Part shown: positions 19,852-64,000 of the stretch, one piece after another | Layout: every line of letters starts with the position of its first letter | Position numbering within the stretch: position 1 is the first letter of the stretch | Sequence record: OR352946.1 | Length of the DNA: 64,000 bases | Strand: one strand, 5' to 3' | DNA from: Escherichia phage AV116 | Notes under the pieces: model-generated | Databases searched by the model: none | The model's input: only the letters and a program-made list of their open reading frames with translations | What the model was told of the DNA's origin: nothing | Program-made: the position numbers and the translations under genes

Positions 19852-20528
19852 AGTTCCATCCAGGCCATTTTGAAGATTTAAGTCTATATGTAACTAAAGA
19901 CGCAGAAATATTAAAAACATTTGAAACTTCTTTACACGAGGCGTATTTTATACCATCAATAATTATAGGTTTTTGTTTTTTAATAGTTCTTTCTTTAGAA
20001 TGCGGCTTTGAATTTGCTATTCTAAGAGCTTCTTTGGTTGAATCAGGCATCGGCTTATTCGTTTTTCGCCCTTTTCGGACTTTACTCAAGGCCAATTTGT
20101 GAGCTTCAGATAGTTTCTTACCCTTATTAGGTGACGGTATTTTTCTTTCTAGTCTTGTTTTAGATACTTTAGCCTTAGTCTCTTCAGATCTAGGTTTACC
20201 TAATTTAGAAAGTGAAATAGGACCTTTTAGCTTCATCACTTTGTTTTTTACCAGGACCACCTTTACCACCGGGAACTAAGTTATAAGTATCATCTCGCAA
20301 AACAAAATCTTCATTAACCAATTCTGCTTCTTTTTTATAGGCGTCCTTGTCATTATCATATTCATAAAGAATTTCGGTATAAAAATTTTTTAGTCCATAT
20401 TTAGCTTTGGCCGCTAATATAGCGCGGCCTGATCCAATATACCAATCTTTCTCTTTATGTTTTTTGTGTACGCCTATATAAATTTTACCATTTATTTTAT
20501 TGGTAGTTTTATACACAACGTATTTCAT
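19844..20528 (-). pseudogene. GIY-YIG homing endonuclease (seg-like) split into two overlapping frames by a frameshift in an A6 run
   Basis: N-terminal ORF (107 aa) has VVYKTTNKINGKIYIGV GIY-YIG motif; C-terminal ORF (141 aa) carries the basic DNA-binding tail; frames overlap at 20205..20269. Confidence 0.6.
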
Positions 20529-55454: not shown

Positions 55455-55949
55455 TCACAACTTATTAATATTTACTTTAATTCGCTTTCTTTTCTTGGAA
55501 GGAATTTGTTCTGGACCTTTATTTACGACTGCACCTGTAGTAGTTCCTGATGCAATAGCTTGAGGGCTGCCACCTGAATCACCAGCAACCATATCCTCAA
55601 ATAAAGGGAGTTCTTTAAATATTTCTTTCTGTTGTTCTTCAGTAATGTTATAGCGTGAAGCTACAGCACTCCAAGCAGACATCATTGAGGCCATTCCATT
55701 AAGACCCGGAACAGTGCTCATCATTCGCTTCATTGAACGAACTGAAGCATGAAAAGGTGTATAAGCCGCTTTCTCTTCAGGAGTAGAAGGACGTTTAAGA
55801 ACACTTCCACGTTCATCGATGATTTTGGCTTCGTATGCTTTCCATTCGGTAAAAGGTTTTTGCATTAGTCGAATAAACTTATATGCATAAACAGAATCTA
55901 TTGCAGTGTTAATAATACCCATAGGTACCTCCTGAGTATATTTAATCAA
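55455..55949 (-). CDS. hypothetical protein (61.1 position)
   Basis: 164-aa ORF. Confidence 0.45.
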   Translation of the reverse strand: MIKYTQEVPMGIINTAIDSVYAYKFIRLMQKPFTEWKAYEAKIIDERGSVLKRPSTPEEKAAYTPFHASVRSMKRMMSTVPGLNGMASMMSAWSAVASRYNITEEQQKEIFKELPLFEDMVAGDSGGSPQAIASGTTTGAVVNKGPEQIPSKKRKRIKVNINKL

Positions 55950-56140: not shown

Positions 56141-56800
56141 TTAACCTCGATTCATAAATGCATTAAATATTTGGTCATCAACAGAAATTTCTAATTCGAC
56201 TTCAATTGCTTCAGCCTTTTCTTCAGGTGGTAATTCGTATCCACACACTACAATTTTTTCATCGATATCAAAATATACAGAAGCAATACGATTAATGTTA
56301 TTTTCAGTTAAGTCTAAATCAACATCAACATCTTTTTGATCTACACTTAAAGGATAACTAATACGGGTTATTTTATTATCTTTAACAAAGAGTCCGCCAA
56401 CGTACTCTGTACTACGTTTGAAGTTTACACGTTTCCGAATTGAAAGATATGATACATCTTTACCGTGAGCTCGGCTCATAGGACATAATGAATAGCTAGA
56501 ATAAGAGATGTCAAATCCTACACCTTCAATATGAGCCAACGTGTCATGATTAAACCAATTATAATCATATGCCAAATCCATTATATTGTAATATGTGAAA
56601 GGCACAGGATTAACATCATATGTTGTACCTTTAAAATCTGCCCAGGCAACGATTTCGTTATCTTTAACAATTACAAAAATTACACCAATATGGTATCCGT
56701 TATTATTTTCATTCGGCGTTATATTATAACATTGTGCATTAGGAAATTTACCATATTTAAATGGCGCATTTTTGTGCATATAATAAATCATATTATTCAC
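56141..56800 (-). CDS. hypothetical protein
   Basis: 219-aa ORF. Confidence 0.45.
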   Translation of the reverse strand: MNNMIYYMHKNAPFKYGKFPNAQCYNITPNENNNGYHIGVIFVIVKDNEIVAWADFKGTTYDVNPVPFTYYNIMDLAYDYNWFNHDTLAHIEGVGFDISYSSYSLCPMSRAHGKDVSYLSIRKRVNFKRSTEYVGGLFVKDNKITRISYPLSVDQKDVDVDLDLTENNINRIASVYFDIDEKIVVCGYELPPEEKAEAIEVELEISVDDQIFNAFMNRG

Positions 56801-57086
56801 CTGTGATTTCGGTTACGATATCTTTGTTATCGAAATTAGGGTCACAATACAAAACATAGTTGTACTGCATGATACCGCCAGACTTAAGTTGTTCAACAAC
56901 TTTATTAACCATATTAGGACGGTCTCGTTTAGTGATGTTCATGATATCAGAGAAGATTTGTTGTTCAACATCTTCTTGATTTGCAGTCATTGACCACTCA
57001 CAGAGGTCTTTATCATAACCTGCCGTAACTGGAGCCGGTGCACATGATACTGCAAGTAAGATTGCTGCCAATGATAACTTTTTCAT
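56793..57086 (-). CDS. sp: spackle periplasmic protein (superinfection exclusion, inhibitor of gp5 lysozyme)
   Basis: 97 aa with signal peptide; AGYDKDLCEWSMTA...KRDRP...LKSGG.MQYNYVLYCD matches recalled T4 Sp. Confidence 0.75.
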   Translation of the reverse strand: MKKLSLAAILLAVSCAPAPVTAGYDKDLCEWSMTANQEDVEQQIFSDIMNITKRDRPNMVNKVVEQLKSGGIMQYNYVLYCDPNFDNKDIVTEITGE

Positions 57087-57111
57087 TTTAACTCCTTAGT
57101 TGATTTGATAG

Positions 57112-57145
57112 GACTACTATACTATAGTCCATCTATAATGTAAAC
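57112..57145 (-). promoter_or_regulatory. T4-type early promoter (upstream of sp)
   Basis: GTTTACATTATAGATGGACTATAGTATAGTAG on the minus strand. Confidence 0.5.
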
Positions 57146-57149
57146 AAGT

Positions 57150-57398
57150 TTATTCTTTTTCGCGAATAATAATTACTTGTTGAGGCTGCTGAGCAGATTT
57201 CTTTTCGGCAACGATAGACCAAATTAAAGTTCCAATCCAACCAATCATCGTCCAGTTAAAGAGTAAAGATACAAAGAAGATTGCTGTTGTGCTTTTTGTG
57301 CCACGAATAAGTGCTATTACCCAAGGCAACATGTAAATGATGATTGAACCAATACCTGCGATTAAAACTGCTACTGAACTAGCTACGAATAATTCCAT
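57150..57398 (-). CDS. superinfection-immunity (Imm) family membrane protein
   Basis: 82 aa, two TM helices; YMLPWVIALIRGTK...LFNWTMIGWIGTLIWSI resembles the Imm_superinfect family consensus. Confidence 0.55.
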   Translation of the reverse strand: MELFVASSVAVLIAGIGSIIIYMLPWVIALIRGTKSTTAIFFVSLLFNWTMIGWIGTLIWSIVAEKKSAQQPQQVIIIREKE

Positions 57399-57402
57399 GT
57401 TA

Positions 57403-57436
57403 ATTTCCTCTTGATTTGTTATGTTTATAGTATCTT
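57403..57436 (-). promoter_or_regulatory. T4-type early promoter (upstream of imm-like gene)
   Basis: GTTTACACCAAAGTTAAAACAAGATACTATAAAC on the minus strand. Confidence 0.5.
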
Positions 57437-57459
57437 GTTTTAACTTTGGTGTAAACCAA

Positions 57460-57828
57460 TTAATTAAATTTGTTTAAACGTTCAATACACTGGACGTAGT
57501 TATTCGCGATTTGTTTCTGGGTAGGCTCTTTACCAGTTGTTTCAACATAGCGAATGAATGCGATTTCAGTAGCCTGTAAACAATGCTCTTTAACACGTTG
57601 TTCTTTTGACATAGCTACAGTATCAGAATCACGATAACGTTGAGCATGAGCATCAGCTTGAATCATTCGATTACCTACAGTAACCGGGTCTTCCACTTCA
57701 ACTTTAGGTTGGTCGTACTGTTTAACATTCGGATTGTAAATCAGTTGGCCGACGTTATTAGGGATAAAGCCATGAGCACCACATCCGGTTAATCCAAATA
57801 CCATTGCTAAAGCGATTAATTTTTTCAT
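57460..57828 (-). CDS. putative lipoprotein
   Basis: 122 aa; signal peptide with lipobox LTGC. Confidence 0.5.
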   Translation of the reverse strand: MKKLIALAMVFGLTGCGAHGFIPNNVGQLIYNPNVKQYDQPKVEVEDPVTVGNRMIQADAHAQRYRDSDTVAMSKEQRVKEHCLQATEIAFIRYVETTGKEPTQKQIANNYVQCIERLNKFN

Positions 57829-57853
57829 TTCAATTTCCTCTGTAGTTGATAGA

Positions 57854-57886
57854 AAGATAGTAACACAGTATGTGGGGCTTGTAAAC
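57854..57886 (-). promoter_or_regulatory. T4-type early promoter
   Basis: GTTTACAAGCCCCACATACTGTGTTACTATCTT on the minus strand. Confidence 0.5.
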
Positions 57887-57899
57887 AGTTATTTTAAAA

Positions 57900-58088
57900 T
57901 TATCGAAAATCTGCTTCGAAAACTTTCTCATCATTAACAAATGCTTTAACTAATGCGTTGTTCACTTCAGCAAGTTGTACCGCAACCCACTCGATTTCTT
58001 CACGATCACCTGATAACATGATATCTTTAGTGAACATCTCGCCGCTTTTAAACCAACCGATAAAAGTAACTTTAGTTAATTTGCTCAT
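57900..58088 (-). CDS. dmd: Dmd antitoxin (discriminator of mRNA degradation); start at MSKLTKV
   Basis: VTFIGWFKSGEMFTKDIM...AEVNNALVKAFVNDEKV matches recalled T4 Dmd (60 aa). Confidence 0.65.
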   Translation of the reverse strand: MSKLTKVTFIGWFKSGEMFTKDIMLSGDREEIEWVAVQLAEVNNALVKAFVNDEKVFEADFR

Positions 58089-58402
58089 ATTTCCTCGCAA
58101 AATGCCCATTCAGCGTGATAAACTGTAGCACCTTTAGTGTCATTCATTTGAACTACATCTACCGGAGAAATTACTCGATAGAGACGTGGTTCACCTCCAT
58201 AAGAGCGTGCTGCTCGTCCTGCATAAATCTTTGCTAAACCGATATCTTCAGTAAAGAATACACGATCCAAGTTTTTCTTACGTCCAGTTTCAGACAGAAC
58301 TCCTGTTTCTTCAGGAGGACAAAGCATGTTTTCGATGTTAGCTGAACTACTTGAACCGTGATAAAAAATCTTAAATTCTGCTTTACAATCGATGGTTTTC
58401 AT
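58085..58402 (-). CDS. hypothetical protein
   Basis: 105-aa ORF with early promoter 58423..58457. Confidence 0.45.
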   Translation of the reverse strand: MKTIDCKAEFKIFYHGSSSSANIENMLCPPEETGVLSETGRKKNLDRVFFTEDIGLAKIYAGRAARSYGGEPRLYRVISPVDVVQMNDTKGATVYHAEWAFCEEI

Positions 58403-58422
58403 TTTGTTCTCCAGTAGTTGAT

Positions 58423-58457
58423 AGGTCTATAATAACACAACTACTGGAGAAGTAAAC
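58423..58457 (-). promoter_or_regulatory. T4-type early promoter
   Basis: GTTTACTTCTCCAGTAGTTGTGTTATTATAGACC on the minus strand. Confidence 0.5.
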
Positions 58458-63427: not shown

Positions 63428-64000
63428 TAGTCAAGGAATCCTTTAACATAATCAAAATCACGTTCAAACACATGGGCACTTACCATGGTATGAGTATAAT
63501 CACCAACTTCTACACCACATTCGTTAGCGATATAATGAAGTAATTTTCCTTGGAGATAAAAATCCAACTGCATAACAACAGCACAGTTCTGGGAACGCAT
63601 ATGACAGTGGGTATAAAGCTTACCGTCACGAATATAATAGGTCACTGAGTCAGTACATGGATATTCAAGCGTTTCGTCTGAATCAAGCAAAGCCTGATCA
63701 GAACTTTCTAGAATTTGGAACACAACTCTTCGGGAGTTAGGCTTCTCTTTAAGTTCTTTTAGAAGAGCTGGTAATTGAGCCGCAATGCGAGGACCATAGA
63801 AAGTGTTGAAGTTCGCCGGCAAAACATCTGATTTTGGTTTAGAAATAAATTTAGCGACATTAGGATATGCCTTAAACGCTTCTTCTGCATTGGTACCACC
63901 AGAAATCATAAACTTCCAGAAGTCTTCGGCATATTCATAAGAGATGCGGTTAATACGTGGGTCGGTCATTTTGAATGATGATGGAGTGTCAACAACTACT
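63427..64000 (-). CDS. 42: dCMP hydroxymethylase gp42 (3' portion; ORF runs off the window end)
   Basis: Thymidylate synthase-family motifs RRVVFQ and YPCTDSVTYYIRDGKLYTHCHMRSQN; reading frame stays open to position 64000. Confidence 0.7.
   Translation of the reverse strand, partial: VVVDTPSSFKMTDPRINRISYEYAEDFWKFMISGGTNAEEAFKAYPNVAKFISKPKSDVLPANFNTFYGPRIAAQLPALLKELKEKPNSRRVVFQILESSDQALLDSDETLEYPCTDSVTYYIRDGKLYTHCHMRSQNCAVVMQLDFYLQGKLLHYIANECGVEVGDYTHTMVSAHVFERDFDYVKGFLD

Follow-up and report, generated by a model that had tools for sequence, protein, structure and literature searches.

The region considered here lies in a 64,000 nt stretch of the genome of Escherichia phage AV116 (sequence record OR352946.1), referred to below as the window, in which the interval bounded by gene 41 (helicase) and gene 61 (primase) has the gene order 41 - orf124 - orf105 - dmd - imm.1 - imm - sp - adfA. 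A first-pass annotation had described four consecutive small genes at 56793-58088, encoding the spackle protein Sp, an Imm-family membrane protein, a lipoprotein with a lipobox and the Dmd antitoxin, and all four are found at these positions on the minus strand (Table 1). Relative to phage T4, the feature that sets this block apart is the pair imm.1-imm, which has very probably moved from between genes 43 and 42 to between dmd and sp as the only copy in the genome, an arrangement that proves to be standard amongst the RB69-like phages.

Table 1. Features of the 41-61 interval in the AV116 window, and lipoprotein genes adjoining imm in the comparison sequences L004 to L008.
Feature	Position	Strand	Description
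adfA (T4 61.2), anti-DarT factor	56141..56791	minus	1 bp downstream of sp; Pfam PF23813 AdfA, 3.7e-119
sp (spackle)	56793..57086	minus	97 aa; predicted periplasmic protein inhibiting the tail lysozyme (gp5) of superinfecting phage
imm-sp intergenic	57087..57149	minus	63 bp; early-type promoter TTTACA-N17-TATAGT, 57144-57116; small hairpin GGACTA..TAGTCC
imm	57150..57398	minus	82 aa, hydrophobic; predicted inner-membrane protein and sole superinfection-immunity gene
imm.1-imm intergenic	57399..57459	minus	61 bp; early-type promoter GTTTAC..TACTAT, 57456-57427 (TTTACA-N17-TACTAT at 57455-57427)
imm.1	57460..57828	minus	122 aa; lipobox lipoprotein LTGC, +2 Gly; DUF5481 / phrog_1754
dmd-imm.1 intergenic	57829..57899	minus	71 bp; early-type promoter GTTTAC..TACTAT, 57886-57857 (TTTACA-N17-TACTAT at 57885-57857); site of RB69 tifA (61.4)
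dmd	57900..58088	minus	62 aa; predicted antitoxin-like inhibitor of host RnlA/LsoA toxins
orf105 (RB69ORF040c)	58085..58402	minus	105 aa; translationally coupled to dmd; putative small ADP-ribosyltransferase-fold product
phrog_1754 lipoprotein gene adjoining imm	L004 2892-3395
phrog_1754 lipoprotein gene adjoining imm	L005 2026-2472
phrog_1754 lipoprotein gene adjoining imm	L006 2879-3379
phrog_1754 lipoprotein gene adjoining imm	L007 2008-2454
phrog_1754 lipoprotein gene adjoining imm	L008 5001-5372

The identities given to the four proteins were confirmed, with Sp, Imm, Imm.1 and Dmd all scoring above the curated Pfam cut-offs. Sp matches PF25676 (T4_Spackle) with 145 bits (cut-off 27; 1.1e-42), over profile positions 1-96 of 96, and aligns with T4 Sp at 66% identity without gaps; it has a hydrophobic signal segment at residues 4-24, and retains Cys29 and Cys81 along with the contact residues S32, M33, T34, A35, Q37 and N76 named in PMC7677548. 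The 82 aa protein had been read as having two transmembrane segments and a superinfection-immunity-like motif, and a hidden Markov model search for the Imm domain indicates that it is a true Imm: it matches PF14373 (Imm_superinfect) with 57.2 bits (cut-off 27.9; 1.5e-15) and phrog_1039, 'immunity to superinfection', at 1e-30, and is 65% identical to T4 Imm over its full length (E 3e-37). Two hydrophobic stretches, at residues 1-34 and 40-59, agree with the earlier reading, the motif LFNWTMIGWIGTLIWSI falls within the Imm_superinfect match (residues 21-62), and an alignment of six genera shows no variation at the positions corresponding to T4 R33 and W50. Dmd matches PF17587 with 70.2 bits (cut-off 27; 1.9e-19), is 54% identical to T4 Dmd, and no hydrophobic segment was found in it. 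Searching NCBIfam yielded a name for none of the six proteins submitted.

The lipoprotein is the product of imm.1, the name given to its orthologue in RB69. It matches PF17578 (DUF5481) with 37.4 bits (cut-off 27; 3.6e-9) and phrog_1754 at 9e-29, and aligns over its full length with T4 Imm.1, to which it is 32% identical (BLASTP E 1e-18). Both proteins have a lipobox, LTGC in AV116, with Cys16 as the lipobox cysteine, and LAGC in T4. Under the Lol sorting rule of E. coli, glycine at the +2 position marks a lipoprotein for the outer membrane, and the +2 glycine of Imm.1 suggests that it would be sorted there.

Each of the four genes had also been credited with its own early promoter, which is borne out for imm.1, imm and sp, but not for dmd. 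The gaps upstream of the first three each carry TTTACA-N17-TA(C/T)(T/A)(A/G)T, matching the T4-type early, or promoter early stem-loop (PeSL), consensus TTTACW-N17-TAYWAT (PMC4122927). Motifs of the form GTTTAC-N16-19-TANNAT occur 19 times in the window against an expectation of 1.14, a frequency far above chance, with almost all of them (18) on the minus strand. For dmd no separate promoter was found, and its start codon overlaps the stop codon of orf105 (ATGA, a gap of -4); the nearest promoter-like site, at 58457-58429, lies in front of orf105, and from this layout dmd is predicted to be transcribed from the orf105 promoter as part of the same transcription unit. At the other end of the cluster the gap between sp and adfA is a single base pair, and therefore these two genes are presumably co-transcribed. 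The sole match to an intrinsic terminator within the cluster is inside orf105, and is no better than expected by chance. Direct repeats are shared between the promoter regions, 57835-57867 with 58407-58439 (33 nt at 76% identity) and 57105-57121 with 58418-58434 (17 nt at 82% identity), whilst a 19 nt inverted repeat (58402-58420/58438-58456) overlaps the orf105 promoter. Both kinds of repeat are reminiscent of the PeSL promoter cassettes known from T4-type phages.

Comparison with other phages shows that the layout was already known. Over 2.8 kb the region shares 99.4% identity with Escherichia phage AV115, the closest full matches being AV115, AV114 and AV109 (99.3-99.4%); 152 phage records match it over 80% or more of its length, and of the 359 records matching the region, 155 do so with at least 95% identity. 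AV115 and RB69 are classified as Mosigvirus, and the record of JK45, a close relative, assigns it to Tequatrovirus. The order in the reference genome of RB69 (NC_004928) is 41 - ORF041c - ORF040c - dmd - 61.4 - imm.1 - imm - sp - 61.2 - ... - 61, and since this order is already annotated, the arrangement represents the known norm of the genus: it is the RB69 standard, common to around 150 Mosigvirus-type genomes at 95% DNA identity or above. The RB69 genes RB69p035-p039 (sp, imm, imm.1, 61.4 and dmd) have the same order, strand and intergenic promoters as their AV116 counterparts, and the AdfA proteins are 99% identical. The two phages differ in that AV116 Dmd is one residue shorter at its end, and in that AV116 lacks a 206-bp segment bearing 61.4, or tifA, which is cleanly absent from between the dmd stop codon and the imm.1 promoter, with DNA flanks sharing about 97% identity. 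No TifA-like sequence was found anywhere in the window. RB69-type TifA occurs in 69 phage records, against 154 with Mosigvirus-type Imm.1, and hence tifA is polymorphic in Mosigvirus.

In T4 the order is 41 - dmd - 61.4 - sp - 61.2, with imm.1-imm 6 kb away between 43 and 42, so the earlier statement that imm occupies a different locus in T4 was correct. The dmd, sp and adfA genes of the two phages are orthologous (54-66% identical) early genes in the same order; however, T4 has tifA where AV116 has imm.1-imm, and has neither orf124 nor orf105 between 41 and dmd. The T4 imm.1-imm pair belongs to the same families and runs in the same order, with a gap of 11 bp rather than the 61 bp, with its own promoter, seen in AV116. 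As the AV116 lipoprotein is Imm.1, the neighbour of imm in T4, what moved is a two-gene cassette.

The gene had been proposed to be either a relocated or an additional copy of imm, and it is the former that stands. Searches with tblastn for imm and imm.1 covered 50,697 phage records, in which T4 Imm had matches in 920 records at 920 places, that is, one imm per genome, and Imm.1 in 656 records at 656 places. Local tblastn found a single copy each of imm and imm.1 in the window, and no second copy of either there or in AV115, JK45 or RB69, the searches of AV115 and RB69 extending across the interval between genes 42 and 43. In RB69 this interval contains arabinose-related genes and a small open reading frame (ORF) whose annotation reads 'similar to T4 42-imm intercistronic region'.

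The pairing of imm with a lipoprotein gene extends beyond these phages. The order 43 > lipoprotein > imm > 42 is found in T4, Melville (Gelderlandvirus) and KpV477 (Jiaodavirus), and a metagenomic T4-like contig (L008) has 43 > DUF5481 > imm > 42; in WG01 (Dhakavirus) and VR26 (Gaprivervirus) imm follows 43, with the lipoprotein gene just downstream of imm rather than upstream, as it is in RB69, AV116 and the others. A phrog_1754 lipoprotein thus adjoins imm in all six Tevenvirinae genera sampled, and the matches of these proteins to phrog_1754 cover the entire profile, at E values between 6e-17 and 1e-51. Whilst the first protein search with Imm.1 gave three matches, a profile search gave 18. 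Aligning the 122 aa (DUF5481) and 147 aa lipoprotein groups with hhalign matched the signal peptide alone, so it is the PHROG profile that unites them as a family. Two metagenomic variants (P0002 and P0019) lack the lipobox cysteine, and have a signal-peptidase-I-type end instead. By parsimony, the position of imm next to 43 would be ancestral, and that between dmd and sp a derived Mosigvirus state.

Taken together, we consider it very probable that AV116 is an RB69-like (Mosigvirus-type) T-even phage with an early gene block normal for its genus, in which imm.1-imm moved from the 43-42 interval to that between dmd and sp as the only copy, the products act separately as they do in T4, and the clustering arose through recombination between promoter cassettes. 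The matches to the promoter consensus suggest that the host sigma-70 polymerase would fire the T4-type early promoters right after infection. Sp would then be exported to the periplasm, and would block the gp5 tail lysozyme of phages arriving later; in T4, mature Spackle forms a helical bundle in the periplasm and binds the lysozyme domain of gp5 (PMC7677548). Imm is likely to insert into the inner membrane and bind the tape-measure protein gp29 of incoming phages, such that no DNA channel opens; T4 Imm is reported to form a complex with the helical-bundle domain of gp29, and exclusion to be reduced by the Imm changes W50A and R33A (2026 preprint, bioRxiv 10.64898/2026.03.06.709160). Dmd, which inhibits RnlA in T4 (PMC9391042), would bind the RnlA and LsoA toxins in the cytoplasm, as is established for the T4 protein. 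By analogy with the T4 orthologues, each cluster product is expected to act alone; in T4, Sp and Imm do their work although their genes lie apart, and hence their adjacency in AV116 is no evidence of a joint system.

The co-location of these genes is probably not a functional requirement, and most likely stems from recombination among the repeated promoter cassettes found on either side of early genes in the hyperplastic regions of T4-type phages. PeSL cassettes have been put forward as agents of modular shuffling in T4-type genomes (Arbiol 2010, PMC2839356; Comeau 2014, PMC4122927), and the AV116 promoters likewise fit the consensus, flank small genes, share short repeats and carry hairpins. 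Their link to the relocation of imm.1-imm is one that we infer from the promoter sequences, rather than from a recombination junction.

A number of points weigh against this explanation. The activities of the AV116 products are all assigned through homology, the source for the interaction between Imm and the tape-measure protein is a preprint, and the promoters are called as consensus matches only. The repeats from which the recombination mechanism is deduced are short, at 17-33 nt, and 76-82% identical; the direction in which imm moved follows from outgroup parsimony over six genera, not from a rooted phylogeny. A Foldseek search of the PDB with the model of Imm.1 gave no match at E <= 0.001, the AlphaFold2 model being poor (predicted local distance difference test score, pLDDT, of 60.6), with the C-terminal helices alone near 80.

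Of the other explanations, the one that survives best is that the four genes, with adfA and orf105, constitute an island under selection, the clustering itself being adaptive, for instance if exclusion and anti-toxin functions are transferred together by recombination between co-infecting phages. The earlier description of the cluster as a superinfection-exclusion and anti-defence island is reasonable in this respect, but is not novel, as Srikant et al. have already named the dmd-tifA-adfA region of T4 an anti-TA (toxin-antitoxin) island (PMC9391042), to which the Mosigvirus version adds sp, imm and imm.1; nor does adjacency of the genes argue for their joint action. The variable presence of tifA is an instance of the polymorphic gene content typical of accessory islands. 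However, T4 imm works despite lying 6 kb away, and the 41-61 interval is hyperplastic, accommodating non-essential early genes in general. We regard selection for the clustering as possible, but less likely than not.

Somewhat more doubtful is the idea that imm.1 and imm are a two-component exclusion module, mutually needed or acting on the same step, and hence travelling together. Imm.1 might tentatively be seen as an unrecognised functional partner of Imm, the pair forming a two-layer envelope module of a periplasmic or outer-membrane lipoprotein and an inner-membrane protein binding the tape-measure protein, in which Imm.1 could serve a second step, either in excluding superinfecting phage or in protecting against lysis from without. 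The constant association across the six genera, its retention through a change of locus and the envelope location of both proteins all fit such a module. On the other hand, Lu and Henning reportedly observed in 1989 that T4 is excluded by T4 imm supplied on a plasmid by itself. Exclusion by Imm was likewise measured in the 2026 preprint from a plasmid without imm.1 (bioRxiv 10.64898/2026.03.06.709160). Furthermore, imm has its own promoter in AV116, so that expression of the two genes is not strictly coupled, the unity of the lipoprotein family depends on the PHROG profile, and the adjacency could be one of historical linkage. A literature search for imm.1 found nothing relevant.

That the Imm-family gene is an additional copy, giving the phage two immunity genes with different specificities, is highly improbable. 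The window ends inside gene 42, so the canonical 42-43 locus cannot be read from it alone; however, the tblastn counts are those of one imm per genome, and no Imm match occurs across the 42-43 interval of either RB69 or the 99.4% identical AV115. Less credible still is the notion, recognised at the outset as one that would undermine a relocation, that the 82 aa gene is T4 61.4 under another name and nothing has moved: T4 61.4 is close in size (85 aa) and sits between dmd and sp, but BLASTP gave no alignment between gp61.4 and the AV116 protein at E <= 100, which rules it out as the counterpart of AV116 imm and leaves relocation unrefuted, gp61.4 being in fact TifA, a soluble ToxN inhibitor (PMC9391042) matching a different PHROG, phrog_2375, and tifA and imm being present side by side in RB69.

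Amongst the neighbouring genes, orf105 gave no match in sequence searches of Pfam, NCBIfam and the PDB. Its residues H15, Y60 and E103 are invariant, and are candidates for the triad of H-Y-E-type ADP-ribosyltransferases. No fixed linkage of orf105 with dmd was seen in other phages, the homologues in a Proteus phage contig and in Vibrio phage henriette having different neighbours. In Vibrio phage henriette 12B8 the homologue (L012 1523-1894) is 1.1 kb downstream of a gene for a 123 aa Imm_superinfect protein. Beyond adfA, a single ORF of 155-164 aa at 55455-55949 on the minus strand spans what are two genes in RB69, gp61.1 (92 aa) and ORF032c (63 aa), matching phrog_2086 and the short phrog_1823. 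The gene 42 homologue, at 63454-63864 on the minus strand, is 25% identical to T4 dCMP hydroxymethylase, against 68-86% for neighbouring core genes; RB69 annotates its own homologue as 'similar to dCMP hydroxymethylase', with arabinose-related genes adjoining. A segA-like stretch at 20271-20516, 45% identical over 82 aa to the T4 homing endonuclease SegA, lies far from the position of segA in T4.

The AdfA protein of AV116 has an arginine at the R164 position, where T4 has histidine. The R164H change is reported to enable neutralisation of DarT1, whilst the arginine allele is reported to be non-neutralising. The anti-toxin content of this region varies amongst close relatives, both in the presence or absence of tifA and in the arginine or histidine form of AdfA, which bears on predicting the toxin-antitoxin defences that a therapeutic T-even phage will overcome. 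The cluster itself matters little, as each of the named genes has a characterised orthologue in T4. The travelling of imm with imm.1, if the association reflects function, would point to a role for a conserved lipoprotein in superinfection exclusion by T-even phages.

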